A stretch of DNA of 64,000 nucleotides. Source: Candidatus Binatia bacterium. GTDB taxonomy: Bacteria; Desulfobacterota; Binatia; UBA9968; JAJDTQ01. Both the position numbers and the translations under genes were made by a program. How positions within the stretch are numbered: the stretch's first letter is position 1; each line of letters begins with the position of its first letter. Positions 15,998-51,082 of this stretch are shown piece after piece. The stretch covers positions 928,001 to 992,000 of the forward strand of contig OY762897.2 of the NCBI GenBank assembly GCA_963666515.2, read 5' to 3'. The notes beneath the pieces are model-generated. The model searched no databases. It was not told where the DNA came from and saw only the letters and a list, made by a program, of their open reading frames with translations.

Positions 15998-16139
15998 GAG
16001 GCTTCGCCTCAGACCGACGAGGGGGTAAGGGGATTGGCTCCGGTCGCTTGTAGCAGGGATTGAATCCCTGGTCATGGGACCTTGCAAGGTCGGACCTCAA
16101 AGGGTCAAATGGGCATAAAAGCCCGAAGCAACCGGAGCC
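15998..16139 (+). other. Multi-branched secondary structure at the 5' end of the element
   Basis: Hairpin 15998-16010; 13/14-bp closing stem 16036-16049 with 16126-16139 enclosing hairpins at 16054-16070, 16078-16091, 16093-16106 and 16111-16124. Confidence 0.75.
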
Positions 16140-16143
16140 GGAC

Positions 16144-19937: not shown

Positions 19938-20157
19938 TGGCGCACCGCCCGGATCCAACGGCGGGGTGCAGGCGGACGGCGAGTTGCGTTGCAATCGAAC
20001 ATGTGGAGCGCATCCTACAACGCGGGATGGACAAAGAGAAATACGCGATCTCGGAACGGCAGGGCACGGATCCGCACGGAATGCTTCCCGCCACGGCGGG
20101 AATCCAGGTTGACACCCACACGCCGTTTCCGTATTGCTGAATCCCATGGAGGACGCC

Positions 20158-20466
20158 ATGCGAAGCACCCATGACATGGGCGGGGACCCCCATGCCGGAC
20201 CCATCGACCGCTCACAGCACCAGTTGGACGACTGGGAGATTCTCGCCGACGCCCTGAACCAGGTGGTGGGGGTCAAGGGCATCAAGCGCACCGACGAGAC
20301 CCGGCGGGCGCGCGAGGAGATGGACTCGGAGGCGTACCTCTCGCTCAGCTACTACGAGCGCTGGATCGCCAGCCTGGAGACGATCCTGGTGGAGAAGGGC
20401 TTCATGACCCGTGACGAGATCGACCGGAAGGTGGCGGAACTGGAAGAGAAGTGGGGCGAGCCGTGA
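20158..20466 (+). CDS. Nitrile hydratase beta N-terminal domain protein (ScnB-like)
   Basis: HDMGG, DETRRARE, YLSLSYYERW, LVEKG; RBS GGAGG. Confidence 0.85.
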   Translation: MRSTHDMGGDPHAGPIDRSQHQLDDWEILADALNQVVGVKGIKRTDETRRAREEMDSEAYLSLSYYERWIASLETILVEKGFMTRDEIDRKVAELEEKWGEP

Positions 20467-20768
20467 GCGGTGACGCGGGTTTCACGGACGGCCAGGCGGT
20501 GCGGGTGAAGTCGCACTTCAAGCCGGGCCACGTGCGCACGCCGTTCTACATCAAGGGCAAGACGGGGTGGGTGGAGCGCTGCTACGGCGAGTTCCGCAAC
20601 CCGGAGTCCCTGGGACACGGCGGCGACGGCCTGCCTCGGGTCCGGCTGTACCTCGTCGGCTTTCACCAGAAGGACGTGTGGGACGGCTACGGCGCCGCCG
20701 GCAGGGACAAGGTTTTCGTGGACATCTTCGAGCACTGGCTGGAGCCCGCCGCGGAAGCGGGCGCATGA
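20463..20768 (+). CDS. Nitrile hydratase beta C-terminal SH3-like protein (ScnA-like)
   Basis: GHVRTPFYIKGKTG, LYLVGF..DVW, VDIFEHWLEPA; GTGA overlap with upstream gene. Confidence 0.85.
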   Translation: MSGDAGFTDGQAVRVKSHFKPGHVRTPFYIKGKTGWVERCYGEFRNPESLGHGGDGLPRVRLYLVGFHQKDVWDGYGAAGRDKVFVDIFEHWLEPAAEAGA

Positions 20769-20784
20769 AACGCGGGAGGGAAGC

Positions 20785-21417
20785 ATGGCGCACGAGCACG
20801 GTCCGGGAGAAGAGCACGAGGCGGGCCCCAGGCACGAGCTGAGCCACTGGGCCAAGCGGGCGTACGCCATACGCGACATCCTCATCGAGAAGGGCGTGCT
20901 GACCGAGGAGGACGTCCGGCAGCAGGCGGAGTTGACCGAGTCCAAGACGCCGGCCAACGGCGCCCGGCTCGTGGCCCGGGCCTGGACCGACCCCGAGTTC
21001 AAGGCGCGCCTCGTGGCCGATCCCAAGAAGGTGTGCGCCGAGATGGGCATCGACGCCACCACCCTGAACGAGTTCGTGATCCTGGAGAACACCGAAGGCG
21101 TGCGCCACATGGTGGTGTGCACCCTGTGTTCGTGCTACCCGCGTCCGATCCTCGGCCGGCCGCCGGACTGGTACAAGAGCTTCAACTACCGCAAGCGCGC
21201 GGTGAACGACCCCCGTGGCGTCATGCGCGAGTTCGGCCTGGAGTTGCCCGACGGCGTGGAGGTGCGGGTGCACGACAGCACCGCGGACATGCGCTACCTG
21301 GTGATCCCGGTCCGCCCCGCGGGCACCGAGGGCTTGAGCGTCGAAGAGCTGGAGAAGCTGGTGACCCGCGACAGCATGATCGGGGTGATGGACGCGTTGC
21401 CCTCCGTTCCGGAATGA
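20785..21417 (+). CDS. Co-type nitrile hydratase alpha / thiocyanate hydrolase gamma subunit
   Basis: VARAWTDPEFK, metal site VCTLCSCYPRPILG, DWYKS..YR.RAV, DSTADMRYLVIP, TRDSMIGV. Confidence 0.92.
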   Translation: MAHEHGPGEEHEAGPRHELSHWAKRAYAIRDILIEKGVLTEEDVRQQAELTESKTPANGARLVARAWTDPEFKARLVADPKKVCAEMGIDATTLNEFVILENTEGVRHMVVCTLCSCYPRPILGRPPDWYKSFNYRKRAVNDPRGVMREFGLELPDGVEVRVHDSTADMRYLVIPVRPAGTEGLSVEELEKLVTRDSMIGVMDALPSVPE

Positions 21418-34576: not shown

Positions 34577-36544
34577 TCAGCTCCAGCTCGACAGCAGCAA
34601 GGGCTCGGGCCACAGGACGTGCAACAACTGATCGAATACCAGATAGAGGTAGCCTTCGGCCAACGCGCCGAGCAGGAGGGCCACGCGCCAGCGCGCGCCG
34701 TAGGTAAACGCGTAGCCGGCGGTGAAGAGCGGCAGGGTTGCGTGGAAGCCGATGAGGAGGATGCCGCCCACCAGCGCGGCGATCCAGAGCAGCACTTCTC
34801 CGGTGCGGCGCAGCACGTCGGGCGGTCCGTCTCCGGTTGCGGCCTCGGGCGCGCCGCCGCGTCGGTGCTTCCGTATGCGCAGGAGGTCCAGCGTGACCTG
34901 GAGCAGCGCAAGGGGAATGCCGACCCCGGCCAGGGAGTAGACGATGAGCGCGCTCCGCAGCGGCCAGTCCAGCGCGACGCTCGCCGCCCACGCCAGGAGC
35001 GCGACGAAGCACAGCGTGAACAGGCTGTTGCCGGCGTGCAGACGGGGATCGTCCGGCGCCGCGGCCGGTGCGTTGTCCCGGGCCTTCTCGCGCCGCTTTC
35101 GGATGGCCGGCAGGAGCAGGGTGAAGACCACCAGCACCAGCAGCAACAGCACGGACGGGCGCAGCAGCCAGGCGAACTCGTAACGCGCGATGGAGAGCCA
35201 CAGGTAGGTCTCCATCTGGAACCCCAGCACCACGGCCACCAGCACCGGCGGGCGGGGCCAGTCGAACAGCTTCATCAGGTAGCCCACCGCGGAGAAGACC
35301 AGGAAGGCGTACAGGTCCTCGTGGGCGTAGCTGGCGGCGAAGGAGGCCGAGGCGCACAGCACCAGGGTCACCGGCACGATGGCGTAGAAGGGCTGGAGCG
35401 AGAGGCGGGCAAAGCTCCCGGCAAAGCTCATGGCCAGGGATGTGGCCATGAGATTGGACAGCACCAGCACCCACACCATCGCCAGCGTAAGGTGCAACTG
35501 GTCCGTGAGCATACGGCTGCCCGGGTGGATGCCCACGGAAACGAAAGCGGCCAGTATGATGGCCAGGGACGTGCTGCCCGGGATGCCGAAGGCGATGGTG
35601 GGAATCAGCGCGCCGCCTTCCTTGGCGTTGTTGGAGCTTTCGGGCGCGATGACGCCGCGCACGTCGCCGGCGCCGAACCGTTCGCTCCGTTTCTCGGTTT
35701 GGACCGCGTGAGCGTAGGCGAACCAGTCGGCGACGCTGCTGCCGAGGCCCGGAAGCACGCCCACCCACACGCCGATGGCGCTGCAACGCACCACCAGCCA
35801 CCAGTGGCGGAACACGTCCTTGATGCCCTCCACGAGACCGCTGCCGAGGTTCTCGGTCTCGGAGATGCTGGTCCGCCGCACGGCCAGGTCGATGAGCTCC
35901 GGTACGGCAAAGAGGCCGAGGCCGATAAGGATGACGTTGACCCCGTCCCAAAGGTAGGCGGTGTCCAGGGAGAAGCGCTCGATGGCGGTCTTCTCGTCCA
36001 CCCCCACGGTGGCGATGAGGAGACCCAGGATGGCCGCCATGAGCCCTTTGACCGGGGCCTTGCCGCTGAGGACGCCGATGGCGCTCAGGCCCCAAAGCAC
36101 CAGCACGAAGAACTCCGGGGAGCCGAAGCTCAGCACCAGCGGACGCAGGATCGGAAGGGACGCCAGCAGCACGATGGCCCCCAGCACGCCGCCCACCGCC
36201 GACGCCATGAACGCGGCGCCGAAGGCGCGCTTGGCCTCGCCCTTGCGCGCCATGGGATAGCCGTCGAGGATGGTGGCCTGGGAGCCGGCGCTGCCGGGCA
36301 CGGCGATGAGCACCGACGGAAAGGTGTTGGCCGTGTTGGAGACCGCGCCGATGCCCAGCAGGAAGGCAATGGCGTGGTAGGGGCTCATGGTGAGGCTGAA
36401 GGGGAGGACGACGGTGAGGATGAGCAGCACGCCCACCCCGGGAAGCGCCGCGAACACGCTGCTCAGCAGCACGCCCCCCACCATGAGCATCATGGCCTGG
36501 GGCTCCAGGATCCCCAACAGGCCCTGGTATGCGGCCTCGATCAA
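34577..36544 (-). CDS. tctA: Tripartite tricarboxylate transporter TctA with fused TctB-like C-terminus
   Basis: VPGSAGSQATILDGYPMARKG, GVIAPESSNNAKEGGALIPT, followed by about 150 extra TM-rich residues. Confidence 0.88.
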   Translation of the reverse strand: MIEAAYQGLLGILEPQAMMLMVGGVLLSSVFAALPGVGVLLILTVVLPFSLTMSPYHAIAFLLGIGAVSNTANTFPSVLIAVPGSAGSQATILDGYPMARKGEAKRAFGAAFMASAVGGVLGAIVLLASLPILRPLVLSFGSPEFFVLVLWGLSAIGVLSGKAPVKGLMAAILGLLIATVGVDEKTAIERFSLDTAYLWDGVNVILIGLGLFAVPELIDLAVRRTSISETENLGSGLVEGIKDVFRHWWLVVRCSAIGVWVGVLPGLGSSVADWFAYAHAVQTEKRSERFGAGDVRGVIAPESSNNAKEGGALIPTIAFGIPGSTSLAIILAAFVSVGIHPGSRMLTDQLHLTLAMVWVLVLSNLMATSLAMSFAGSFARLSLQPFYAIVPVTLVLCASASFAASYAHEDLYAFLVFSAVGYLMKLFDWPRPPVLVAVVLGFQMETYLWLSIARYEFAWLLRPSVLLLLVLVVFTLLLPAIRKRREKARDNAPAAAPDDPRLHAGNSLFTLCFVALLAWAASVALDWPLRSALIVYSLAGVGIPLALLQVTLDLLRIRKHRRGGAPEAATGDGPPDVLRRTGEVLLWIAALVGGILLIGFHATLPLFTAGYAFTYGARWRVALLLGALAEGYLYLVFDQLLHVLWPEPLLLSSWS

Positions 36545-36566: not shown

Positions 36567-37619
36567 TCAGCGCTCGGGCACGTCGTACTTCTTGCGCAGC
36601 TTCGACGCGTAGTCGAGGACTTCCTTGGGGACGTCGACGATCTGCGGGAGGCGCTTGTTGAGCGACTCGCCGGTAACGGAGATCAGGTCGAGGCTGAACT
36701 GCTTGCGCGCTAGCTTGAGGAACTCGGGGTCGTGGACGGCCTTCTGGAAGGCGTCGCGGTAGACCTTGACGTACTCCGCCGGGGTCTTCGGGGGCAGCGC
36801 CTGCCACTTGTCGATGGTCGACGGGCCCATCCACGACTCGTACGCCGCCGTGGCCAGTTTGCCGATCTTCTTTTCCGCCATGAGCTCGGGGAAGATGGGC
36901 ACGTCCTTGAACGACGAGCGCGGCGTGTACCCGTCCGGGCTCCGGATGCCTTCCTGGGCGATCAGATCGATGACGCCCTCGCCCTTCAGCTCGTTGATGA
37001 TGTAGGCGTTCTGCGTCGCCAGGACGTCGATCTCTCCCTGGCTGATGGCCTTGACCAGCGCGCCGGTGCCGGGGTAGCCCACGATCCACTTGAGGTTCCA
37101 CCCGAGGAACTCCGCGCCCCACACGTTCATGGCCTGCCACGCGCGCGCGCCGCTGATGCCGCCGACGTTGACCTTGGCGGCCTTCTTGTCGGTGAGCCGC
37201 TTGTGCGCGTCCTTGCGGATGAACAGCACGCTGCCGCCGCGGTGGATGCCGCCGATGGCGATGAACTTGCGCGGGTCGTACTTGATCACCTTCCGCCGCA
37301 GCACGTGAGGCTGGATCGGACTCGAGTCCGTCTGCATGAAGGTCATGCCGTCCGGCTTGATGCGGTTGGCCAAGTAGTTGGCCGCCTTGATCTTGCCGCC
37401 GCCCGCGCCCATGTACTGGTACACGAAACGCGGATTGCCGGGCAGGTACTTCTGCATGAAACGGTTGATGAGGCGCCCGGACAAGTCGGTGCCGCCGCCG
37501 GCGTTGGAGGCGACGATCACCTTGACGGTCTTGCCCTCGAAGGACACATCGGCCTGGGCCGGCGCCGCCAGAGCCCACAAAGCGCAGAACAGAATTGCAC
37601 CCGAAAGAATGCGTGCCAT
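36567..37619 (-). CDS. tctC: TTT substrate-binding protein (Bug/TctC)
   Basis: Signal peptide, GKTVKVIV..AGGGTDL..R, PGNP, YMGAGGG, PPKTP, DPEFL. Confidence 0.88.
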   Translation of the reverse strand: MARILSGAILFCALWALAAPAQADVSFEGKTVKVIVASNAGGGTDLSGRLINRFMQKYLPGNPRFVYQYMGAGGGKIKAANYLANRIKPDGMTFMQTDSSPIQPHVLRRKVIKYDPRKFIAIGGIHRGGSVLFIRKDAHKRLTDKKAAKVNVGGISGARAWQAMNVWGAEFLGWNLKWIVGYPGTGALVKAISQGEIDVLATQNAYIINELKGEGVIDLIAQEGIRSPDGYTPRSSFKDVPIFPELMAEKKIGKLATAAYESWMGPSTIDKWQALPPKTPAEYVKVYRDAFQKAVHDPEFLKLARKQFSLDLISVTGESLNKRLPQIVDVPKEVLDYASKLRKKYDVPER

Positions 37620-37714
37620 GTCACCCCTCCCGTCAAACCCGGCGTAGCCGGAACACAAACGATGACGCCCGCCAATGGTGTTGCGAGCCGTTGGTATCCG
37701 TGGAGAGCCCGGCC

Positions 37715-38518
37715 TCAGTGCTCGCTGATGTCGATCATCACCCCGTCAGGGTCCGCAAGTTGGTACTCCCCGAACTTGCACTTGGCGAACAGATCGAGGC
37801 GCGCCTCCGCCTCCGGGCCCGCGCCCACCGGACCGGGGCTCAGGTAGGGGTTGCGCTTGGACAGCTCCTCCAGCCGGTCCTTGACCGCCTGCACGCTTTC
37901 CACCTTGAAGCCGAAGTGGTCCAGCGCCGGCCGCTCGATGCCCGTTCCCGCGTAGTCGGAGATCTTCCAGGGGGAAATGACCAGGGTGACCCGGCCGTCG
38001 GTCAGGTAGCAGTTGGGATCGTTCGCGGGCTTTTCGGTCTCCAGCAGGTCGAAGACGTCCCGGTAGAACTGCGCCACCCGTTCCGGCTCCACCGCGCGCA
38101 GCACGAAGTGATTGACGTGGCGGTCCGCCTGGCGGTCGCCGTCCACGTACACGTCGGTACGGTTCTCCATCCCTTCCTGGGAGAGGTCGAACACGTTCCC
38201 CGCGGGGTCGTGGGTGCTCAGGCCGGCGAACGGGCGGTTGCTCGGCCGCTTGAGGATGTGCACCTCCGGGTACTTCTCCGCCATGCGCGCGGACACGGCC
38301 TCGACGTCGTCCACCTCGAAGCCGAAGTGGTCGAAACCTGCCTGGCGCCCGGGCCTGCGCGGGTTGATGTTGATTCCCACGTAACCGTCGCTCACCACCG
38401 ACGCGCTCTCGATGCGCGCCCGCTCCGCGGTCTTCATGCCGAACACGGCCTGGTAGAACTTCTCCTCGATGGCGTAGTTCGAGCTGACGATGGCCAAGTG
38501 CTTGATCTTCGTGGTCAT
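37715..38518 (-). CDS. Two-domain VOC-family protein
   Basis: IKHLAI, DHFGFEV, DPAGNVFD; repeated as NHFVL, DHFGFKV, DPDGVMID. Confidence 0.85.
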   Translation of the reverse strand: MTTKIKHLAIVSSNYAIEEKFYQAVFGMKTAERARIESASVVSDGYVGININPRRPGRQAGFDHFGFEVDDVEAVSARMAEKYPEVHILKRPSNRPFAGLSTHDPAGNVFDLSQEGMENRTDVYVDGDRQADRHVNHFVLRAVEPERVAQFYRDVFDLLETEKPANDPNCYLTDGRVTLVISPWKISDYAGTGIERPALDHFGFKVESVQAVKDRLEELSKRNPYLSPGPVGAGPEAEARLDLFAKCKFGEYQLADPDGVMIDISEH

Positions 38519-40026: not shown

Positions 40027-40479
40027 TCACGAGCCGTTTTCCGCGTCCCAATCGAACATGCGCCGCCGCCGGCGCGCGTTGAAGTTGATCACCTCCAGCA
40101 GCAGGCCGTCGGGGTCGGAGAAGAAGGTCGCGTAGTAGTCGGCAGAGTACTGCGTATAGGCTTGCGGCTCGGTGGCCTCGACACCGGCCGCCCGAAGCTC
40201 GCGGCAGGCCCGGTCCACGGCCTCTTCGTCGGCTACGCGGAAACACAAGTGCGACGGCGCCCCGTGGCCCATGCCCGGCTCCGCCGCGGTTCCCTCGCGC
40301 AGCACGACCCAGTAGGTGAGGTGCCGGTTGTCGTAGCGCGCCCGCGGTGACACCTTGTCTGAAGTCCTGCCCTTGCGGAAGCCCAGTATCGGCATCACCC
40401 TGTCGTAAAAGGCTTCGGCCGCGGCGAGATCCCGGACGGGGATGAACACGTGGTCGATGCAGATGACTTCAACCGGCAT
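40027..40479 (-). CDS. VOC/glyoxalase-family protein
   Basis: IDHVFIPVRDL..AEAFYD, HLCFRV, YYATFFSDPDGLLLEV. Confidence 0.88.
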   Translation of the reverse strand: MPVEVICIDHVFIPVRDLAAAEAFYDRVMPILGFRKGRTSDKVSPRARYDNRHLTYWVVLREGTAAEPGMGHGAPSHLCFRVADEEAVDRACRELRAAGVEATEPQAYTQYSADYYATFFSDPDGLLLEVINFNARRRRRMFDWDAENGS

Positions 40480-40584: not shown

Positions 40585-41910
40585 TCAGTGCGCCCGGCAG
40601 GTCCGCTCGGCGCCGCCCCACAGGTCGGTGGCGCCCAGGAGGGCGTCGGCGGCGTCGAGGCTCATGGGGTCGAAGGCCGACACCACCGGGGCGCCGGGGT
40701 AGTTGAGGACCTGCAACCGTTCGTAGGCGCCCACCACCCGTTCCGCGGCGGGCAGCTCCAGGGTGCGGTCCCGGGTCCCGGTGCTCACCACCGCATCGGC
40801 CGTGTCGTCGTAGAACAGGAGCGGCGAGTCCGTGCCGTCCCTGCCGCCGTACTCGTAGGTGACCAGCACCGTCTTGATCCCTTTCTGCTCACACGCGCGC
40901 ACGGTCAGCATCACCTCCAGGAAGGCGTTGCCGGAGCCGAGCCAGGTGATGAGCGCGGCTTCCGCTCCCAGCGCCCGTGCCACCTGGGCCGCGTTCTGTG
41001 CCGCCACCTCCTTTTCCCGGAAGCTCTCGAAGCGGATGCGCTGCAGGACGACGCCGGCGAAATCCAGCCGGCGGCCGTGCTCCCGGGACAGGCGCAGGGC
41101 CAGCGGATGGTTCTGCCAGTCCCAGGTGGTGGGGTAGTAGGCGATGGTCTTGAGGGTGTTGCCCGTCACCGCGCCGTCCAGCAGCTCGTTGGGGTGTACC
41201 ACCGTGGCCAGGGACTCGCGCACCGGCAGGCCGTAGTACCCCAGTCCGGTGGGCAGATGCTCCGACTCGGTGATGCAGCCCACGATCACCACGGTCTTGG
41301 GCAGACCGGGATTCCCGTGCGCCGCGCCGTGCGTTTCGACCGCCGCGGGCTCGGCGCCCAGGGTGGCCTCGGCGAGCCGTTGGGCAACCCGGTACTCCGC
41401 GGCCTGTATGGCCTGGTGGGCTTCGGCCTCGATCAGGTCCGGGGGCAGCCCGAAGGTCAGCACGAGGTGGGGGAGCCGGCTGAAACCCGTCAACTCGGCC
41501 CCCGGACCCCACATGTCCAGGATCGCGCTCCGCTGGGCGGTGGTGCCGGTGCGGACGGTGCCCTCGTACTCGGCCGCGGTCAGGAGCGTCATGCCGGAGA
41601 GCCGGTGGGTGCGGCCCGCGCCCACGGGAGCCACCGGGTTGGTGATGCCGGGGAACACCTGGCCGCCGCCGTCCGCCTTGACCCTGGGCTCCACCGAGTC
41701 GCGGATGCCGGTCACCCGTACCGGCTGGCCCGGCCGCACGATGTCGAGCCGGGCGGAGAGGATCCTGGGGTCCCGCGACGCGGTCTCCACCACCTCCGCC
41801 TCGTCCACCTCCAGGGCGCCGCCGGCGTACCGTAGCGTCCCGCCGAACCGGAGGTCCTCAACCGGGAACTCCGCGAGTTCCAGCGGCGTGGCGTGCCGGC
41901 CGCCGCTCAT
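40585..41910 (-). CDS. grdE: Glycine/sarcosine/betaine reductase component B proprotein (GrdE-like)
   Basis: RVTGIRDSVEPRVK, VGAGRTHRLSG, ILDMWGPGA, VHPNELLDGA, QNHP, GSGN, ADAVVSTG. Confidence 0.85.
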   Translation of the reverse strand: MSGGRHATPLELAEFPVEDLRFGGTLRYAGGALEVDEAEVVETASRDPRILSARLDIVRPGQPVRVTGIRDSVEPRVKADGGGQVFPGITNPVAPVGAGRTHRLSGMTLLTAAEYEGTVRTGTTAQRSAILDMWGPGAELTGFSRLPHLVLTFGLPPDLIEAEAHQAIQAAEYRVAQRLAEATLGAEPAAVETHGAAHGNPGLPKTVVIVGCITESEHLPTGLGYYGLPVRESLATVVHPNELLDGAVTGNTLKTIAYYPTTWDWQNHPLALRLSREHGRRLDFAGVVLQRIRFESFREKEVAAQNAAQVARALGAEAALITWLGSGNAFLEVMLTVRACEQKGIKTVLVTYEYGGRDGTDSPLLFYDDTADAVVSTGTRDRTLELPAAERVVGAYERLQVLNYPGAPVVSAFDPMSLDAADALLGATDLWGGAERTCRAH

Positions 41911-43235
41911 GAGGCCGCGTCCGGCGTGAACACGGTGCTCTCCTCGACCTCTTCCTCGAGGGCCTGGAGGGCGGTCTCGACGATGGACTTGCGCAGCTTC
42001 TCGTCGACCTCCGGCGGCAGGCTCGGGTCGCCGCAGGGATGGGGGATCTTGACGCCCTTGACGATGCGGCTGGCGCCCACCTGCTCGGCGAGCGGGAACA
42101 TGGCGCTGATCATCGACACGGGAACTCCGGCACGGTCCAGTTCTTTGCTGATCACAGCTCCGCTGCGACTGCAGGTCCCTCACGTGCTGACCAACAGCGC
42201 GGCGTCCACGCTGTTGGCCTTCAACTCTGCGGCGATCTCCTGGCCCACCCGCTGCATGGCCGCAGGCGAGCCCTGGTTGCCGGGGATGACGTAGTAGGCG
42301 GGGTAGAGGTCGTCGTACTTCCCCTCCTGCTGCAGCTCCCGCAAGGCGTCGAGGGGGACGCCGTAGAGCGGATTGGCGTTCATGTTGGCCACGTTGTAAC
42401 CGCCGTGCACCGCCTCCCACATGCCCGGCTCCATGGTCTTCAACTCGGCCACCGGATACTTGCGCCAGAAGGTGTTGCGGAAGGTCTTGAAGCCGTCGGG
42501 ATTGCCCCACGGCACCACGCCGCTGGTGGTGACCAGCGCGATCTTGGCCTTGCCCACCTGCGCGACCGCGGCCGCGGGCGCCACCCGGTCCCAGGTCTGC
42601 ATCGGCACCTCGGTGGCGAAGGGCCTGCCCTCCAGCTTGTCGAACAGCATGTCGAGGGCGCGGTCGGCGCCGGTCCGGTCGCTTGTTTCCTGGATACGGA
42701 TGCCCCGCGGCAGATAGCCTTCGTCCTCGGCCGCAGCAACGGGCTCGTCGCGCAGCCGCTTGATGACGAACCGGGCCAAGTCCTCCAGGGCCTTGCCCAT
42801 GCCCGCGGCCGTTTCGGTCGTGGAGAAGAGGAACAGCCTGGGGTCATGGTATTCCCGGTACGTGTCCACCGCGGGATTGTCCTCGTGCATGGCGGTGACG
42901 CACACGCGGTCCAGCTCGGTCGCTGCCATGTGGCCGATCTCGACGCAGGCCAACCCGTAGCGCCCGGCATTGAAGGCTGGCCCCAGCACCACGATGTCCA
43001 CCGCGGCCGCGGTGACCTCCCGCAAGAGAGCCGCCCGCGCCTCCGCCGGCTTTTCGTGAAAGTGGTTGTCGCCGAAGTAGATGGTAGGAGCCACTTCCGC
43101 TTCGCCCTGGAGCAGCCGTTGCAGGCCGCGCGACGGGCCCGCGAGGGTGTCGAGGGTTCCGGCTGCCACATCGGCCTTTTCCTCCCCGCCGATTCCGGCG
43201 AAGAACTGGTTGACGACATGTGCCACGCGCTTCAT
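41907..43235 (-). CDS. grdB: Glycine/betaine/sarcosine reductase-family selenoprotein B (Sec at TGA 42180-42182)
   Basis: NQFFAGIGGEEKA, GPAFNAGRYG, ALVTTSGVVP.GNPD, HGGY, then LVST-TGA-GTCSRSGAVISKELDRAGVP...IPHPCGDP in one frame (442 aa), matching the GrdB STUGTC motif. Confidence 0.92.
42148..42174 (-). promoter_or_regulatory. Bacterial SECIS-like hairpin
   Basis: Begins 6 nt after the UGA: CUG-(CA bulge)-GUCGCAGC-GGA-GCUGUGAU-CAG, G-led apical loop. Confidence 0.75.
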
Positions 43236-43399
43236 GGTCCGCCTCCTTCCCCTGGGCCGATTGAACATTACCGACCACGGTAGCGAAGAGCCGAACTCCA
43301 CGCAAGGGAAGGGGAGAACCCTTGACGCGCCTTGACGACCTGACCTATAGGGAGGTCGCACCCGGCGCGGCCTGGAAACACCACGGGAGGTGGCCCATC

Positions 43400-44629
43400 A
43401 TGGAGATGACGACGCGGCAGGAGAACGCGACTCTCACCCAGACAGGGCGCGGCACGCCCATGGGGGAGTTGCTCCGCCGTTACTGGTGGCCGGTGGGGAT
43501 ATCGGCGCATCTGAAGGACAAACCTACGTTCATCCGCGTCATGGGCGAGGACTTGGTGCTGTTCCGGGACGGCAAGGGTAGGGCGGGGGTGTTGGGGGCG
43601 TACTGCGCGCACCGGCGCGCGAACCTGTGCCTCGGCGACGTGGAGACGGGCGGCCTGCGCTGCCGCTACCACGGCTGGTTATACGACGTCGAAGGACGCG
43701 TTCTTCAAACTCCCGGCGAGCCGCCGGAAAGCACGCTCAAGGACGGCATCCGCCAGCTCGCGTACCCGGTGGAGGAGTTGGGAGGGCTCGTGTTCGCCTA
43801 TCTCGGACCGGAGCCGGCGCCGCTCCTGCCCCGGTACGATTTCCTCGTGGGTGACGGCGAGACCTACGTGACCGTGCAGGGCCTCCAGGACTGCAACTGG
43901 CTCCAGTGCGTGGAGAACGGGCTGGACCCGGTTCATCCGAGCTTCACCCACGGCGGCGCGTGGCCGGACATCCGCAGCACCGAGCCCGACCTGGGGTTCG
44001 AGGAGACCCAGTGGGGGCTCGTTTACAAGGCGTACCGCAAGTCGGACACGCCCGGAGAGTTCAACTACCGCGAGCACCACCTGCTCATGCCCGGCATAAG
44101 CTGCGGCGGCAGCGGCGGACGCTATCTCAAGGGTCCGTCCGGCGGCACCCCGGTTTCAGCGGCGCGCTGGAGCGTGCCCATCGACGACACACACACGCTG
44201 CTCATGCGGGTGCGGTTCAAGCCCGCGGACAACCCCGGCAAGTACGAGGGCGATCCGTTCAGCAAGCGCTGGAAGCCTCCCAGGGACTTCATCGAGCCCT
44301 ACAAGGAGTACCGGGACTCGGACACCCCGGTGCTCGGCTACGACATCCCGCCGCTCCACTTCATCGAGGACGGCATGGTGGTGGACAGCCTGGGGCCGCG
44401 GGTGGACCGGGAGAAGGAGAACCTCGGCCCCACCATCGACGACGGCATCATCCGCCTGCGCAGCATGTACCTCCGGGAAATGGAGAACGTGCGCCTCGGA
44501 CGCGATCCCAAGAACGTCATGCGGGATCCCGAGAAGAACCGGACGGTGGTCATCACGGCCTATGAGAGATGGGTTTCCGAAGCCGAGCGTCAGGAGCTCG
44601 AAGAATCGACTTCATCCTGGAGGGGGTAG
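43400..44629 (+). CDS. Rieske non-heme iron oxygenase alpha subunit (phthalate dioxygenase-like group)
   Basis: GTPMGELLRRYW, CAHR...CRYHGW Rieske site, CNWLQCVENGLDPVHPSFTH iron site. Confidence 0.92.
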   Translation: MEMTTRQENATLTQTGRGTPMGELLRRYWWPVGISAHLKDKPTFIRVMGEDLVLFRDGKGRAGVLGAYCAHRRANLCLGDVETGGLRCRYHGWLYDVEGRVLQTPGEPPESTLKDGIRQLAYPVEELGGLVFAYLGPEPAPLLPRYDFLVGDGETYVTVQGLQDCNWLQCVENGLDPVHPSFTHGGAWPDIRSTEPDLGFEETQWGLVYKAYRKSDTPGEFNYREHHLLMPGISCGGSGGRYLKGPSGGTPVSAARWSVPIDDTHTLLMRVRFKPADNPGKYEGDPFSKRWKPPRDFIEPYKEYRDSDTPVLGYDIPPLHFIEDGMVVDSLGPRVDREKENLGPTIDDGIIRLRSMYLREMENVRLGRDPKNVMRDPEKNRTVVITAYERWVSEAERQELEESTSSWRG

Positions 44630-44634
44630 GGGAG

Positions 44635-44952
44635 ATGACCGTCCACCACGTCAACGAGAACGGCGCCGAGATGGTCAGGACCGCACGGGGACAGACCAAA
44701 TACCTCTATCGCAACGAGGGAGGCGCAGGGCCGTCGATCATGATCCGCCACTGGGGGCCGGACACCGACATCCCGGTACACAGCCACCCGTTCAACGAGA
44801 TGTTCTACGTGCTGGAGGGGGAGGTGGAGATCGGCGATATCCTGTACACCGCGGGGTCGTGCGTGTTCATCGAGGGCGGGACGCCTTACGGTCCCACGCG
44901 CGCGCCCAAGGGCGTGAAGGTGCTGCGGTACGCGGAGGCCTACCAACGGTAG
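44635..44952 (+). CDS. Cupin-domain protein
   Basis: PVHSHPFNEMFYVLEGE, GSCVFIEGGTPYGP. Confidence 0.85.
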   Translation: MTVHHVNENGAEMVRTARGQTKYLYRNEGGAGPSIMIRHWGPDTDIPVHSHPFNEMFYVLEGEVEIGDILYTAGSCVFIEGGTPYGPTRAPKGVKVLRYAEAYQR

Positions 44953-45040
44953 GCCGGCGCCGCAGGGCTCCGGCGCCATTCAGCGGGTTCACGGATTCGG
45001 GTCGAAGACGGTTTCATACGGCAGGAAAGGGGGAACGACG

Positions 45041-46132
45041 ATGAGGATACGCAAGCATTGGTTGTGTGCGTTCGCGATGGTCGGGCTCTTTCTCTTCGGG
45101 GCGCAGTCCGCGTACGGCGCCAACGCCTACGAGCAGCTCGTGGCCGCGTCCAAGGCCGAGATGGAAAAGACCGGCGGCAAGCTGAGGATGTCCCTGGACT
45201 GGCCCAAGCGGGACACCAAGAACGTGCTCCCGGCGTTCAGCAAGGCCTACCCGTTCATCAAGGAGATCTCCTACAAGCGCGAGGTCGGCATCGGGCCGTT
45301 CGGGCAGTTCCTCATCCAGTACAAGCAGGGCAAGAACCCGCCCTACGACATCATGCACATCGCCAGCGAGTTCCAGGCGCAGTACCTGAAGGAGGGCGCC
45401 TTCGTGAAGCCTCCGTTCAGCTACACGGAGTTGAACAAGCACATCCCTGCGGGTTGGCCGAAGCTCGATTCCAGGGCCATGGACCCCGCCGGGAACTTCC
45501 TTTCCACCACGGGCAACGTCAGGGGCAACGCCTACAATCCCACGCTGGTTCCCAAGGGCAAGGAGCCCACGGGCTGGGATGCCTGCCTCGATCCCATGTG
45601 GAAGGGGAAGTTCATGGTCGACACGCGGAACAAGCTCCAGGCGTTCCAGCATGATTCCAAGACGCGAGAGACGCACCTCAAGTGGCTCAAGGGGATCATC
45701 GCCAACGGCGCGGTGCTGACGCGCGGCCAGGGGACGATCCTGCGCAAGATCGCTTCCGGGGAGTTTCCGCTGGCGTGCGGCATCAACTACCACACGGCCA
45801 ACCGCATGATCGACAGCGGCGTGAAGAACCTCGTGTACACCCAGCCGGGCCCGGTTCCGCTCGAGATCGGCACGCGGGTGTACGTGGCCGAGTGGTCGAA
45901 GACGCCGGCCACCACCCAGCTCTGGGCGGTGTGGATCTCCACCGGCGGGCAGGACGTGCTTGAGAAGTACGCCTACCGCGGCTTCCCGTGGGATCCGTCG
46001 TCCAAGAAGTATCCCCTGGCCAAGGGGAAGGACGTCGCCATCTGCGGCGCCGATTGCGCGCGCAAGTGGGACAACTACAACCGCGAGTACCAGGAAATGC
46101 TGGGACTGCCCGCGGCCAAGAAAAAGAAGTGA
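45041..46132 (+). CDS. ABC transporter substrate-binding protein (Fe3+/polyamine-like clade)
   Basis: Signal peptide, AYNPTLV..PTGWDACLDPMWKGK, IASGEF. Confidence 0.8.
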   Translation: MRIRKHWLCAFAMVGLFLFGAQSAYGANAYEQLVAASKAEMEKTGGKLRMSLDWPKRDTKNVLPAFSKAYPFIKEISYKREVGIGPFGQFLIQYKQGKNPPYDIMHIASEFQAQYLKEGAFVKPPFSYTELNKHIPAGWPKLDSRAMDPAGNFLSTTGNVRGNAYNPTLVPKGKEPTGWDACLDPMWKGKFMVDTRNKLQAFQHDSKTRETHLKWLKGIIANGAVLTRGQGTILRKIASGEFPLACGINYHTANRMIDSGVKNLVYTQPGPVPLEIGTRVYVAEWSKTPATTQLWAVWISTGGQDVLEKYAYRGFPWDPSSKKYPLAKGKDVAICGADCARKWDNYNREYQEMLGLPAAKKKK

Positions 46133-46194
46133 CGCCTGCCTCTCTGCGTCCGTCAGTCGCGGACGCTGGGCAGTCGTCGTGACGGTGGATTCTC

Positions 46195-46220
46195 GTAGGG
46201 GCGACCCGCCGGTCGCCCCT
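46195..46220 (+). repeat. GTAG-type REP palindrome
   Basis: GTAGGGGCGACCCGCCGGTCGCCCCT; near-identical inverted copy at 55681-55704. Confidence 0.7.
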
Positions 46221-46258
46221 GCGGTCGCTGCATTCGGGCTGCCCGGACAGGCTCCCGG

Positions 46259-47074
46259 TCAGTCCGGCTGCGACAGGAAGTCGCCAACGAGCCGGTTGAA
46301 CCGCTCTGCCTGGTCCCAGAAGGCCCAGTGGCCGCAGTGGTTGAAGACGTGGAGTTCCGCGTCCGGGAGCGCCTCGAACAGCAGCACCCCCCTTTCCAGC
46401 GCCACGCCCCGGTCGTTCCTTCCCCAGATGAGCAGCGTCCGGTTCCGGATCTCCGACAGGCGTTCCCCCACGGGCTTCGAGGGAGGCGCCTCCCACCGCT
46501 TCACCATGGCGTCGAAACGGGATCCCGTGCTCATTTCATAACGTTCCGCCACCAGTTCGTCGGTGACCAATTCGCTCCTGAGCAGGGTCTTCAGGGTCAC
46601 CGCCCGCATGTTGTCGAGCGAAGGGGTGTATTCCCGCAACTCCTGGTTGTGCTTCTTTCCCTGGGCCACGGCCGCTGCCGATCCCGGCGGCGACAACGTG
46701 CCGCTGGAGATGAGGACCAGGCGCTGGGCTCGCGGGTCGTCCAGCGCGATTCTTGCCGCGATGTAGGCGCCCATGGAATTGCCGAGGAGATGGAAGCGTT
46801 CCAGCCCCAGCGCGTCGATGAACTTCCGTGCGTGGGTAACCCGGTACTCCATGGAGTAGTCGGCGGGGTTGTCGGTGTTCCCGAACCCGGCCTGGTCGAA
46901 GGCGTACAGGCACAGCCCCGAGGCGGCCAGCGGCTCCATGTTCAGCTTCCAGGCGACGAGGGAGCAGACACCGGGCGCACCCCCATGGATCATGACCACC
47001 GGATGCCCGCTTCCCGCGGTCAGGTAGAACGTCCTGAGCCCGTCGACTTCCAGGTACCGGTGCTCAATGGCCAT
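46259..47074 (-). CDS. Alpha/beta hydrolase, meta-cleavage-product (BphD/MhpC-like) type
   Basis: IHGGAPG, GNSMG, IWGRNDR, CGHWAFWD; RBS GGAGGAG. Confidence 0.8.
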   Translation of the reverse strand: MAIEHRYLEVDGLRTFYLTAGSGHPVVMIHGGAPGVCSLVAWKLNMEPLAASGLCLYAFDQAGFGNTDNPADYSMEYRVTHARKFIDALGLERFHLLGNSMGAYIAARIALDDPRAQRLVLISSGTLSPPGSAAAVAQGKKHNQELREYTPSLDNMRAVTLKTLLRSELVTDELVAERYEMSTGSRFDAMVKRWEAPPSKPVGERLSEIRNRTLLIWGRNDRGVALERGVLLFEALPDAELHVFNHCGHWAFWDQAERFNRLVGDFLSQPD

Positions 47075-47187
47075 GACAGCTCCTCCCATGCTCGTTCGCC
47101 GTCCTCTTGAACGGGGTTCTCCGGTCGTAGTAGAAGCCCCGCGAGAGCCATACAACATTGAACCTTCGCTGAAAAGATGAGGTCGGG

Positions 47188-48957
47188 ATGACCGCGGCAC
47201 CCTCAAGACCATCCGTCTCCGGCGGCGCACCGGGCTGGCTCGGGTGGGCGCGGGAGCATTCCGTGGCGGTGCTGAGCGTCGTGCTCACCGTATGGCTCGT
47301 CATCGTACCCCTCGCTACCCTGATCATCTTCAGCTTTCGCCTGGGCAACCCGTGGGAGCCGGGCGGCTTCACGCTCGATCACTACGCCAGCGCCTATTCC
47401 GATCCGCAAACCTGGTCGATGTTCTTCAACACGGCCCTGCTGGCGGTATTCAGCACCGCCATCTCCGTGGGGCTGGCGACCTTCTTCGCCTTTCTCACCG
47501 AACGCACCGACATGCCGTTCCGGAACGTCGCCTGGGGCCTGATCCTGGTGCCCATGGCCATGCCGGGGCTCCTGTTCGCGGTCTCCTGGACCTTCCTCCT
47601 CTCTCCGCAGATCGGTCTCTTCAACGTGTGGATGCGCAGCGCGGCGGGATGGTTCGGCGTGGAGCTGACCGCCGGGCCGCTGAACATCTACAGCCTCTGG
47701 GGCATGGTCCTGCTGGAGGGTCTGCGCGGCGTCACCACCACCTTCCTGATCATGGTGGGAGCCTTCCGGGCCATGGATCCCAGCCTGGAGGAGGCGGCAC
47801 GGGTCGCCGGCGCCTCCGGGCGCAGGACGTTCTTCGGCATCTTCCTGCCGCTGCTGACGCCGGCCATCCTGGGCGCCACCATGTACAGCTTCATGACCCA
47901 CCTGGAGTCGCTGGAGGTTCCGCTGGTCATCGGGCTGCCGGCGCGGATTCACGTATTCCCCACCTATATCTTCTATACGACACAGCGTTATACGCCTCCC
48001 GAGTACGGCCTCTCCGCGGCCCTCGGGGCCAGCTTCCTGCTGGTGAGCATCCTCCTGGTCTACGCGTACCGCTACGCCATGAGGCAGGAAGGGCGCTTCG
48101 CCACCATCACCGGGAAAGGGTACCGCCCGCGCGTGATGGCGCTGGGGAACTGGCGTTACGTCGCGTTCGCGGTCTTCTTCCTGTATTTCGCCCTCACGAT
48201 TCTGGCACCTAGCTTCGTCCTGCTCTGGAGCTCCCTCCTCCCGGTCTACATGACCCCTTCGTGGGAGCTGTTCTCCGACCTGAACCTGGAGCACTACCGG
48301 GAGATTTTCTCCGACAGCGATGTCTGGGACGCGACTGCCAACACCATCGCCGTCGCATTGGGCGCCGCCACCCTGACCATGCTCCTTTCCCTCGTCGTCG
48401 CCTGGGTCATCCTGCGGAAGCGCTTCCGGGGAAGGACGCTCCTCGACGCCGTCACGTTCCTGCCGCACGCCCTCCCGGGGGTGATCATCGCCATCGCCTT
48501 CATGTTCCTGTACCTCCAGCCGCCGTTCAGCGGACTGCGCCTCTACGGGACGGTGTGGATCATCGTGCTGGGACTCACCGTGAGCTACATCGCCTTCGGC
48601 AGCCGCAACATGACCGCGGCGCTGACCCAGGTCCACGTGGAATTGGAGGAGGCCAGCCACGTATCCGGCGGAAAATGGCTCACGCTCATGCGGCGGATCG
48701 TGCTGCCGCTGGTATTGCCCGCGTTCATCGGCGGCTGGATCTGGGTGGCGTCTCATTCCCTGCGCAACTTCTCCGTGCCGCTGATCCTGGCCACCCGCGA
48801 GAACTGGACGCTGTCGGTGATCATGTGGCGTTCCTGGGAGGACGGCTATCCGGGGCAGACCTCGGCCCTGGGTGTGCTCTTGATCGTTGCGCTGGCGGTG
48901 CTGACGGTGGGCGGCCGCTGGCTGGTGGCGCGCATGAGCCGGCGTCAGGAATCGTGA
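47188..48957 (+). CDS. ABC transporter permease (FbpB-like, duplicated domain)
   Basis: ERTDMP, MDPSLEEAARVAGA, ATITGKGYRP, ELEEASHVSG. Confidence 0.9.
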   Translation: MTAAPSRPSVSGGAPGWLGWAREHSVAVLSVVLTVWLVIVPLATLIIFSFRLGNPWEPGGFTLDHYASAYSDPQTWSMFFNTALLAVFSTAISVGLATFFAFLTERTDMPFRNVAWGLILVPMAMPGLLFAVSWTFLLSPQIGLFNVWMRSAAGWFGVELTAGPLNIYSLWGMVLLEGLRGVTTTFLIMVGAFRAMDPSLEEAARVAGASGRRTFFGIFLPLLTPAILGATMYSFMTHLESLEVPLVIGLPARIHVFPTYIFYTTQRYTPPEYGLSAALGASFLLVSILLVYAYRYAMRQEGRFATITGKGYRPRVMALGNWRYVAFAVFFLYFALTILAPSFVLLWSSLLPVYMTPSWELFSDLNLEHYREIFSDSDVWDATANTIAVALGAATLTMLLSLVVAWVILRKRFRGRTLLDAVTFLPHALPGVIIAIAFMFLYLQPPFSGLRLYGTVWIIVLGLTVSYIAFGSRNMTAALTQVHVELEEASHVSGGKWLTLMRRIVLPLVLPAFIGGWIWVASHSLRNFSVPLILATRENWTLSVIMWRSWEDGYPGQTSALGVLLIVALAVLTVGGRWLVARMSRRQES

Positions 48958-49147: not shown

Positions 49148-51082
49148 CTAACCTTGTTCGTAAAGGACCTCGCCGGTGCCCCCGGTATCGTAGCCGCCGA
49201 GAGATTCCATCGCCCGCCTGAACTCGTCGGAACGGAGCACCGCCAGCAGGGTGGCGCCGATATCCGATTCGTAGAAGGATCGCAGCAACAACAGGTCGTA
49301 CTGCTCGTCGCCCACCGGGATGAAGTCGAGATTCAGGGCATCGGCCGCGGAAAGAATCCCCAGCCCGGTGTCGGCGAGGCCGCTGGCCACCGCCACCGCC
49401 ACGGCCATGTGGGTGAACTCCTCGTGCTCGTAGCCCTGGATGCTGCTCGCTTCCATACCGAGCTGTCCGAGCTTGAAATCCAGCAGCACGCGGGTGCCGG
49501 AACCGGGCTGGCGGTTGACGAACCGCAGCCCTTCCTTGCCCAGGTCGGCTATGCCCGACAGCCCCCGCGGGTTGCCGCGCGGCACGAGCAGTCCCTGCCG
49601 GCGCTGGACGCAGTGCACCAGCACCACGGGCAGGTCCGGGACCACCCGTTTCACGTCCGGGACGTTGTAGGCGCCGGTGGCGGGGTCCAGCAGGTGGGTG
49701 CCGGCCATGTGGGTCTCGCCGCGGCGGATGGAATGCAGGCCGCCGAGGCTGCCGACGTTGGCGGTGGCGATCTTGAGCCGCGGGTCCCGGCGTTTGAGCC
49801 GGTCCTCCAGCACGCTGATGGAGAGGTCGTGGCTGCCGGTGCACAACACCGTGTGCTCGATCTCCTCCGGCGATCGCAACAGCTCGACGTCGACCTCCTC
49901 GCCGGCGTTGATCCCCTCCACCATGCCCGGGATGCGCAGGAAGCCGTCGGCCCGCACCATGGTGCTGATGACCCCGGCCCCGCGCGCCAGCGGCACGGCC
50001 ATGAGCCGGTCCTCGACCCTGCCGAGGGTGACCCGGACGAATTCCTCCAGGCCCAGCCGGGAGGGAATCTTTCGGGGCGCAACGGCGCGGGCCGTGGGAG
50101 GGGAGGCGGGGCCCGCGCCCAGCATTTTCCGCAGCGCCGGTTGAAGGATCTCGCGGGCGATGACGATGGCGGACACGGGGTAGCCGGGAACGCCGATGAC
50201 GGGTTTGCCGGCCGCGGCTCCCAGGACCGCGGGTTTTCCCGGCATGACCTCGATGCCGTGCGCCAGCAGCTCGCCGGCGCCGGCGATCACCTCCGCGGTG
50301 AAGTCGTGCTCGCCGGCGGACGATCCGGCGATGAGGGCGACCAGGTGGTGGTCCGGCAGGGCGTCGCGGAGGGCCTGCTCCAGCAGCGCCGGGTCGTCGG
50401 CGACCGCGGGAAAGACCTCCGGCGCGCCGCCGCACTCGGCGACCATGGCTCCCAGCACGGTGGAATTGAAGTCGATGATCTGCCCGGGCCGCGCCGGCGC
50501 TCCCGGAGCGGTAATCTCGTCGCCCGTGGGGATGATCGCCACCCGGGGCCGGGCCTTGACGCGCACCGTGGTATGGCCCGCCGCCAGCATGGCCCCCAGG
50601 TCGTAGGGCCTCAAACGGTGGTTGCGCGGCAACAGCAGCTCGGTCGCCACCACGTCCTCGCCTACCAGGCGCACGTTCTGCCAAGGGGTGGCGGCCTCGT
50701 CGATGGACACGGCGTCCCCGCCCTGGTCGCGCACCTTCTCGATCATGATCACCGCGTTGGCCCAGGACGGCAGCGGCTGGCCGGTGTCCAGCCAGGCGAA
50801 GCACCCTTCGGGGTGATCCTCGTCGGCAAGCAACCGGAGTTGCCGGGGCGCGAATTCGGTGGCCCCGAAGGTATCCTCCGCGCGCACGCAGATGCCGTCC
50901 ATGGCGGAGCCGTGGTAGTGGGGCGAGGAGATCCGGGCGAACACCGGCTCGGCGGTGATCCGGTGCAGGGCCTCGCCCACGTCCACCGTCTCGTCCTCCA
51001 GGCGCGCGCCGTCGACGCGGCCCAGGAACAACTCCCGCGCCTCGGTCAGCGGAGTCTTCTTGAGGTATCGTTTGCGTGCCAT
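49148..51082 (-). CDS. Molybdopterin biosynthesis protein, MoeA fused to a PBP-like domain
   Basis: SAMDGICV, IIPTGDE, PGKP, GVPGYPVS; C-terminal GSHD, GSLGGL, NRQPGSGTRVLLD. Confidence 0.92.
   Translation of the reverse strand: MARKRYLKKTPLTEARELFLGRVDGARLEDETVDVGEALHRITAEPVFARISSPHYHGSAMDGICVRAEDTFGATEFAPRQLRLLADEDHPEGCFAWLDTGQPLPSWANAVIMIEKVRDQGGDAVSIDEAATPWQNVRLVGEDVVATELLLPRNHRLRPYDLGAMLAAGHTTVRVKARPRVAIIPTGDEITAPGAPARPGQIIDFNSTVLGAMVAECGGAPEVFPAVADDPALLEQALRDALPDHHLVALIAGSSAGEHDFTAEVIAGAGELLAHGIEVMPGKPAVLGAAAGKPVIGVPGYPVSAIVIAREILQPALRKMLGAGPASPPTARAVAPRKIPSRLGLEEFVRVTLGRVEDRLMAVPLARGAGVISTMVRADGFLRIPGMVEGINAGEEVDVELLRSPEEIEHTVLCTGSHDLSISVLEDRLKRRDPRLKIATANVGSLGGLHSIRRGETHMAGTHLLDPATGAYNVPDVKRVVPDLPVVLVHCVQRRQGLLVPRGNPRGLSGIADLGKEGLRFVNRQPGSGTRVLLDFKLGQLGMEASSIQGYEHEEFTHMAVAVAVASGLADTGLGILSAADALNLDFIPVGDEQYDLLLLRSFYESDIGATLLAVLRSDEFRRAMESLGGYDTGGTGEVLYEQG

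Follow-up and report, generated by a model that had tools for sequence, protein, structure and literature searches.

What is the role of a glycine-reductase-type gene pair in a bacterium whose genome also encodes an oxygen reductase, and does it belong with the oxygenase genes that lie beside it? In textbooks, Grd-type selenoenzymes mark strict anaerobes that carry out Stickland fermentation. We analysed a stretch of 64,000 nucleotides, called here the window (positions 928001-992000 of contig C1), of a Candidatus Binatia genome (G000; 4.67 Mb, 67% GC, 98.35% complete) in which a haem-copper oxidase is also encoded (COX1, 496.6 bits). The window carries the two genes of a Grd protein B, grdB and grdE, divergent from a block of Rieske oxygenase, cupin, substrate-binding protein (SBP), hydrolase and permease genes. 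The explanation that we favour, with moderate confidence, is that this pair, itself intact, encodes one substrate-specific protein B of a Grd variant without GrdD, which is served by GrdA and GrdC in trans and is uncoupled from the Rieske cluster.

The grdB-grdE pair and its selenocysteine codon

The pair and its predicted hairpin occupy the following positions of the window:

43235..41907, minus strand: grdB, selenoprotein B homologue of 442 amino acids with selenocysteine (Sec) at residue 352; PF07355 359.9 bits, TIGR01918 431.7 bits over positions 1-430/431
42146..42173, minus strand: predicted hairpin resembling a selenocysteine insertion sequence (SECIS), 9-36 nt 3' of the UGA, with an 8-bp core stem and a GGA loop
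41910..40585, minus strand: grdE homologue of 441 amino acids; PF09338 291 bits

The in-frame TGA of grdB (42182..42180) stands within the motif LVST-U-GTCSRSG, and after it the frame remains open and alignable for another 90 residues. The grdE start codon and the grdB stop overlap as ATGA, as in translationally coupled genes. Both the UGA and the core stem-loop sequence are kept in all 25 loci compared (the window and loci L006-L029), down to 61% protein identity. The genome encodes a tRNA-Sec, SelA and SelD, the last with an in-frame TGA of its own (C1:4043412-4044335). Together, the family scores, the conserved UGA and hairpin, and this selenocysteine machinery indicate that the pair is a true selenoprotein locus.

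That the pair is a decaying, functionless relic is hardly credible. It does lie apart from its partner genes, amid many mobile elements, and one relative (L021) has a short grdE or none. However, open frames, UGA and hairpin are maintained over the range of identities just given, the pair has a high coding signal in GC content at third codon positions, homologues at about 60% identity number in the hundreds, and contigs from RNA libraries cover the copies of relatives. These contigs were found in four metatranscriptome runs of two studies (sponge and marine), with shares of only 0.05-0.09. They are only 90-99% alike to parts of the window, and thus come from relatives. They match parts of grdB, of grdE, of a two-domain VOC gene and of all five Rieske-block genes, and one of them (41724-42324) spans the UGA and the grdB/grdE junction. 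None bridges the spacer between grdB and the Rieske gene (43236-43399), uncovered parts being no evidence.

By score, GrdB belongs to the broad subfamily TIGR01918 but to none of the described reductases. When equivalog models for glycine, sarcosine and betaine reductases were applied (TIGR01917, NF040794, NF040795, NF040793), GrdB missed all three cut-offs of its family: 408 bits versus 602 for glycine (TIGR01917), 405 versus 800 for sarcosine, and 380 versus 775 for betaine (GrdH). GrdE was likewise below the cut-offs of the GrdG model (194.8 versus 780 bits) and of the FarE model (NF053623, 110.8 versus 675). A PrdB model gave a partial match to GrdB (84.7 bits, cut-off 300), a PrdA model gave no match to GrdE, and a sequence search of the PDB returned no solved relative for either protein.

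The residues that follow the selenocysteine differ among GrdB paralogues: the pattern is UxxCxxS in the window and in L029, UxxCxxC in L003, and UxxSxxS in L004, L057 and L059a. The forms seen are UGTCTRC, UGTSTRS, UGSSTRC and UGTCSRS (L003 9050-10509, L004 8560-9878, L057, L059 and L029), and some GrdB paralogues have no Cys at all close to Sec.

Probable partner genes elsewhere in the genome

The initial annotation had described the pair as an orphan, with component B only and no thioredoxin system in the window. Our gene calls, made with a simple caller that left about 9 kb uncalled, agree on the content: no grdA, grdC, grdD or thioredoxin-system gene is among the called genes of the window. 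The pair is an orphan by position only, since family searches over the whole genome found the sole grdA and the sole grdC, both outside the window. The single grdA (C1:4331229-4331669) has a TGA and a CFVU motif; grdC is directly upstream of it (505.7 bits, cut-off 450), and the two (C1:4331229-4333145), flanked by an hsdM-like gene and insertion sequence (IS) elements, are 3.36 Mb from the window pair. This adjacency of grdC and grdA is kept in 14/14 loci fetched. Order-level profile counts were made on 41 genomes, G000 and 40 relatives of its order; grdA is present in 34 of them, and in 23 of 24 when only the genus is considered (G000 excluded).

GrdD is another matter. Its model (NF040747) exceeded the cut-off in 0/41 genomes, the best match in G000 reaching 19.6 bits versus 350. 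Acetate kinase (PF00871) had no match in the G000 genome either. Thioredoxin and thioredoxin reductase genes are absent among the called window genes and next to grdC-grdA, no genome-wide trxB search having been made. A DUF255/DsbH-type thioredoxin-fold protein of about 510 amino acids, with a GlcNAc-2-epimerase-like C-terminal part, adjoins grd genes in two families of the order (L004 11404-12978, L059 6828-8348) and is a candidate reductant.

Two sets of orthologous loci were used for neighbourhood comparisons: a close set of 22 genome loci, with GrdB identities of 84-94%, and a distant set of 76 metagenome orthologues (45-71%), 43 of which have at least 1.4 kb of upstream DNA and 21 at least 3.6 kb downstream. 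The main reason for proposing that the window pair uses GrdA and GrdC in trans is that orthologues are contiguous with grdC-grdA. In L029, where GrdB is 61% identical, the order is grdB-grdE-grdC-grdA without interruption, and grdC and grdA follow the pair in 5 of the 21 distant loci with sufficient downstream DNA. Contiguous grdC-grdA-grdE-grdB genes were also found in other families of the order (L057, L059). The modular layout of G000 supports the same reading: a single genome holds three grdE/grdB pairs (in the window, at C1:3.53 Mb and at C1:0.32 Mb) and a lone grdE.

The lone grdE (C1:4239487-4240800; L005 9484-10902) is 60% identical to the window GrdE, has no adjoining grdB, and is surrounded by SDR, TauD-family, Amidohydro_2, TctC-like and class II aldolase genes. 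Two extra grdE genes each are present in L028 and L029.

The main rival is an autonomous reductase comparable to D-proline reductase PrdA/PrdB, itself a homologous pair of selenoprotein and proprotein that works without proteins A and C. Under this explanation GrdA and GrdC would not be used, the product would be a reduced compound rather than an acetyl unit, and redox proteins, either neighbouring or general, would supply the electrons. The genus pair is indeed unlinked from grdC-grdA, 16/21 distant loci have neither grdC nor grdA in the downstream DNA compared, and in 28/43 distant loci grdE is directly upstream of grdB, usually with an SBP gene ahead and nothing Grd-like after. In addition, a quinone-oxidoreductase-like gene lies downstream of the window pair, and the PrdB model matches GrdB in part. 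However, this PrdB score is far under its cut-off and the PrdA model does not recognise GrdE. PrdA, moreover, carries a pyruvoyl group, which the window GrdE cannot form from a Cys (see below). In addition, grdA is kept in 23/24 genus genomes although no canonical glycine reductase is present, and L029 and five metagenome loci have an orthologous pair directly joined to grdC-grdA. We regard the autonomous reductase as unlikely, though it is the alternative to be taken most seriously.

A lone SBP_bac_8/6-type SBP gene followed by grdE and grdB on one strand is the commonest layout among relatives from soil and groundwater metagenomes. It is found in L067, L072, L076, L079, L092, L100-L102, L107, L109, L110, L113 and L114, in L118, L119, L121, L125, L131, L133, L134 and L140, and in others. 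With the fused permease of the window as the only query, no permease was seen in these units. In these units the SBP may work with the reductase and not with a transporter. Two further kinds of neighbour are possible substrate clues: hydantoinase/oxoprolinase A and B genes after grdA in L029 (13801-17609), L069 and L070, and UbiD-family decarboxylase genes close to grd genes in three unrelated loci (L029 902-2458, L030 2011-3378, L057 16271-17752).

The cleavage site of GrdE and the chemistry it would allow

In C. difficile GrdE, the pyruvoyl cofactor comes from Cys242 (PMC9908766). The GrdE family was sampled with a profile of 11 sequences against 1.84 billion representatives, which gave 1,784 matches at E<=0.001. 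NCBIfam labels were given to 116 of the best 150 representatives; among these, only three, P0194, P0183 and P0249, approach the canonical GrdG model (631, 484 and 475 bits). A MAFFT alignment of 143 rows was then examined, made of 136 representatives of 380-460 amino acids and of seven sequences from the order of the Binatia genome.

The three canonical-like sequences read DGAxxSGN-C at the cleavage site, with a Cys (residue 246, 242 and 241, respectively) that corresponds to the C. difficile Cys242. The window GrdE reads DGAVTGN-T-L, without Cys. Over the whole alignment, a Cys stands in the cleavage column in 7/143 rows, and in 0/7 rows of the Binatia order; none of the four GrdE paralogues of G000 has one there, nor have those of L057 and L059. 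In a FastTree phylogeny of the 143 rows with midpoint rooting, the seven Cys-bearing representatives do not form one clade, and no evolutionary direction is drawn from it.

We propose that a GrdE devoid of the pyruvoyl-forming Cys binds its substrate without a Schiff base. A precedent exists in betaine reductase, where GrdH/GrdI bind the substrate without a Schiff base and GrdI is uncleaved. The substrate would then probably be of the type X-CH2-COO-, and, with no Schiff base, primary and secondary amines would drop out as the leaving group X; examples are a betaine-like onium and other carboxymethyl compounds. Sec352 of GrdB would attack the alpha-carbon and expel X, the carboxymethyl group would pass to the Sec of GrdA (CxxU), and GrdC would convert it into an acetyl thioester. 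With GrdD and acetate kinase both undetected, the likely fate of the acetyl unit is acetate or acetyl-CoA, to be used as a carbon source, and not acetyl phosphate for ATP. We hold these chemical details with less confidence than the assignment as a protein B working in trans.

Could the pair simply be an ordinary betaine reductase, or a glycine or sarcosine reductase, used for anaerobic energy conservation, with genes merely scattered? GrdB matches the subfamily model over its full length, grdA and grdC are present, and a Cys-less GrdE resembles the uncleaved GrdI. On the other hand, all three equivalog cut-offs are missed widely, and the host encodes a haem-copper oxidase. With GrdD over cut-off in none of the 41 genomes and no acetate kinase in G000, the route from acetyl phosphate to ATP is not encoded. 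This makes an ordinary reductase improbable.

The betaine reductase of Eubacterium acidaminophilum consists of the selenoprotein B GrdH and of GrdI, with GrdA, GrdC and GrdD. The Binatia system shares with it a GrdB-family selenoprotein with a UxxC motif, a GrdE-family partner without the self-cleaving Cys, and genome-encoded GrdA (CxxU) and GrdC, a single A/C set for several B modules. It departs from it by the low GrdH score, by the lack of detectable GrdD and acetate kinase, by a host with an aerobic respiratory oxidase, and by the dispersal of its genes, with extra lone GrdE paralogues. Protein B of clostridial glycine reductase is similar in both Pfam families, in the Sec codon with its downstream hairpin and in translational coupling. 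It differs in that the window GrdE has no equivalent of Cys242, that GrdB is below the TIGR01917 cut-off, and that the locus contains no grdA, trxA or trxB. The clostridial gene order is grdE-grdA-grdB, so the order grdB-grdE is reversed. With PrdA/PrdB, the likeness stops at the homologous pair, given the scores above. A further member of the GrdE family, FarE of fluoroacetate reductase (NF053623, Synergistota), belongs to a Grd-like system that acts on a carboxymethyl compound which is not an amino acid, as described in PMC10838667. By that account the family can take non-amine substrates, although the window GrdE is far from the FarE cut-off.

Several points weigh against our reading. Sixteen of the 21 distant loci have no grdC or grdA in the fetched downstream DNA and the genus pair is itself 3.36 Mb away from them, so that the trans partnership stays an inference; no grdA was found in G001, a genus member that is 95% complete. 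In the canonical mechanism GrdD is required for the final step, which here GrdC alone would have to carry out. The Cys column of the MAFFT alignment could be shifted by one residue (T or L), with no Cys nearby either way. The window motif is UxxCxxS (U-G-T-C-S-R-S), and not the UxxCxxC quoted for GrdB in a review (PMC13188914). Finally, the RNA-library contigs cannot prove transcription, levels, operons or co-expression, DNA carry-over being possible.

Against the textbook role of Grd enzymes in Stickland anaerobes, an intact Grd-type system (GrdB and GrdA, both with Sec, and GrdC) is present in an uncultured order that encodes an oxygen reductase. If it is active, Grd chemistry also covers substrates bound without a Schiff base, the reaction must be completed in a different way, and the annotation 'glycine reductase' is misleading in reconstructions of soil and sponge communities from metagenome-assembled genomes. 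A pathway coupled to the Rieske oxygenase would be more surprising, but comparative evidence argues against it (next section). A GrdD-less, Cys-less Grd system of Binatia was not found in the open-access literature searched: this search returned no paper on Binatota with glycine reductase, and among the matches listed, none joins a grd term with Rieske, and none of those on selenoproteins or Grd mentions Binatia or Binatota. The Olavius delta-1 symbiont, considered as a possible carrier of many GrdB paralogues, was dropped, as a table in PMC1976440 gives 0 GrdA and 0 GrdB.

A wider proposal is tentative, possible rather than probable. Binatia and related uncultured lineages of soil, groundwater and sponges may share a distinct selenoenzyme system of GrdA and GrdC without GrdD, in which Cys-less GrdE paralogues, often each with its own SBP, would act as interchangeable specificity subunits of GrdB. 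Hosts able to respire aerobically would in this way strip carboxymethyl groups reductively from onium compounds, betaine-like or other, from ethers or from tertiary amines, the acetyl unit entering CoA metabolism and not yielding ATP. The window pair would then be one module of this kind. In the boldest version of this proposal, the neighbouring oxygenase island, where present, would produce or release the substrate of the pair.

The Rieske block and other neighbours

Beyond the start of grdB, the following features were mapped:

43236..43399: divergent grdB/Rieske intergenic region, 164 bp
43400..44629, plus strand: Rieske non-haem-iron oxygenase alpha subunit of the phthalate-dioxygenase type; PF00355 62.5 bits
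44569..44952, plus strand: small cupin of 127 amino acids; Cupin_2 32.4 bits, cut-off 27.2
45041..46132, plus strand: periplasmic SBP, SBP_bac_6-like; 22.4 bits, below the 24.6 cut-off
47230..46259, minus strand: alpha/beta hydrolase resembling meta-cleavage-product hydrolases; Abhydrolase_1 89.8 bits
47188..48957, plus strand: fused ABC permease with two domains, at the end of the variable island; BPD_transp_1 matched twice
49148..51082, minus strand: moeA, beyond the permease

The divergent region of about 165 bp, the Rieske-cupin-SBP unit, the hydrolase and the permease announced by the initial annotation are all there, with some refinements. The Rieske gene starts at the ATG at 43400, preceded by a GGGAGG ribosome-binding site, and the closest solved relative of its product is the alpha subunit of phthalate 4,5-dioxygenase (7fhr, E 4e-46, residues 29-303). 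The cupin is the 44569 frame; the overlapping 44562 frame had no domain match and no PDB match. The SBP is weakly similar to the Fe3+-binding proteins FbpA/HitA (2o69: 33 bits, E 3e-7). The hydrolase is below the curated cut-offs for HsaD (170.8 versus 400 bits) and BphD (156.9 versus 462), as is the permease for PhnU2 (173.8 versus 593), and there is no ABC ATPase gene in the block.

The initial annotation had linked these genes to the pair, as a repurposed module in the aerobic catabolism of an imported substrate, while noting that the adjacency might be coincidental. In such a scheme, GrdB/GrdE and the Rieske, cupin, ABC and hydrolase genes would form one pathway. What speaks for it is the shared 164-bp divergent spacer, which is similarly short in six relatives (L012, L017, L019, L022, L026, L027), and the co-occurrence of the block, found within 10 kb of the pair in 14/22 close genome loci and in 3/4 close metagenome loci (two of which, L063 and L064, look like one assembly). 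In addition, families typical of aromatic catabolism recur beside Grd genes (two-domain VOC in the window and L059; UbiD in L029, L030 and L057), and RNA-library contigs of relatives contain both gene sets.

The linkage does not persist under closer comparison. The block is absent in 8/22 close loci, and these keep grdB-grdE at 84-92% identity, with moeA 0.36-2.9 kb from grdB. A permease reading frame of 237 amino acids remains in one of them (L024), where the block looks partly deleted. No Rieske orthologue was found in 5/5 Rieske-less genomes searched whole, the best matches being 37-52% identical versus 89-96% for orthologues. In 7/14 loci bearing the block, 1.35-6.8 kb of other DNA separates it from grdB, including a YhgA-like transposase (L014) and helix-turn-helix genes (L023). 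Among distant loci, 0/43 have a Rieske gene upstream of grdB, and 2/76 have a downstream one, 32-35% identical and 1.7-2.6 kb away. Finally, the 4.67 Mb of G000 hold 22 Rieske-domain, 112 Amidohydro_2 and 26 TctA genes; with such base rates chance neighbours are common, and a chance adjacency to a Rieske gene is plausible.

The spacer itself carries, upstream of grdB, a promoter-like motif CCTTGC..N17-18..TTCGCTACCGTG and a CCCTATAGG palindrome, and both are conserved with and without the Rieske block. In L006, L008, L015, L020 and L026, another grdB leader of about 120 nt, mutually conserved (..CCGTGCATAAC..GATGNTAANGG..GTAAANCGT..), replaces the motif of the window type.

From these sequence comparisons, the Rieske/cupin/SBP/hydrolase/permease block looks like a separate accessory island, present between moeA and grdB in some strains, and its adjacency to the pair is most likely accidental. 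We consider a common catabolic pathway distinctly improbable. Coincidence, offered initially as a caveat, is thus the better reading. What survives of the module first proposed is its non-canonical nature (no GrdD, no acetate kinase, a Cys-less GrdE, a haem-copper oxidase in the host), and not its coupling to the Rieske genes.

On the grdE side, the pair is followed by these genes:

40027..40479, minus strand: single-domain VOC/glyoxalase-fold gene, downstream of grdE; PF00903 49.2 bits
38657..39592, minus strand: zinc-type quinone oxidoreductase-like gene; ADH_N and ADH_zinc_N_2, PIG3-family model 205.9 bits, under its cut-off
37715..38518, minus strand: two-domain VOC protein of 267 amino acids; PF00903, two matched stretches
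36567..37658, minus strand: weak TctC-like gene; TctC 19 bits, E 0.0011, under its cut-off
34577..36544, minus strand: TctA, of a tripartite tricarboxylate transporter (TTT) type; TctA 386 bits

The single-domain VOC gene follows grdE in 19/22 close loci, the quinone oxidoreductase-like gene is more variable (13/22), and roughly half of the close loci have the TctC-like and TctA genes. A 55% identical homologue of the two-domain VOC protein lies between two grdE-grdB pairs in L059, in another family of the order. The VOC, quinone oxidoreductase-like and TctC-like/TctA genes may be functional partners of the pair. As clues to the substrate, Amidohydro_2, TctA and VOC neighbours were set aside, in view of the genome counts for Amidohydro_2 and TctA given above.

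Two other features of the window were recorded. An open reading frame of 563 amino acids (16060-17751, plus strand) has no Pfam or NCBIfam match and is present in nine copies on C1, the translations being 100% identical. Copies of it adjoin grdC-grdA (L002) and the grd genes of L003, and it probably encodes the transposase of an IS family not yet described. A nitrile hydratase cluster (20134-21417, plus strand) lies beside cobalamin biosynthesis genes; its beta subunit is split into an N-terminal (20134-20466) and a C-terminal part (20451-20768), followed by the alpha subunit (20785-21417).

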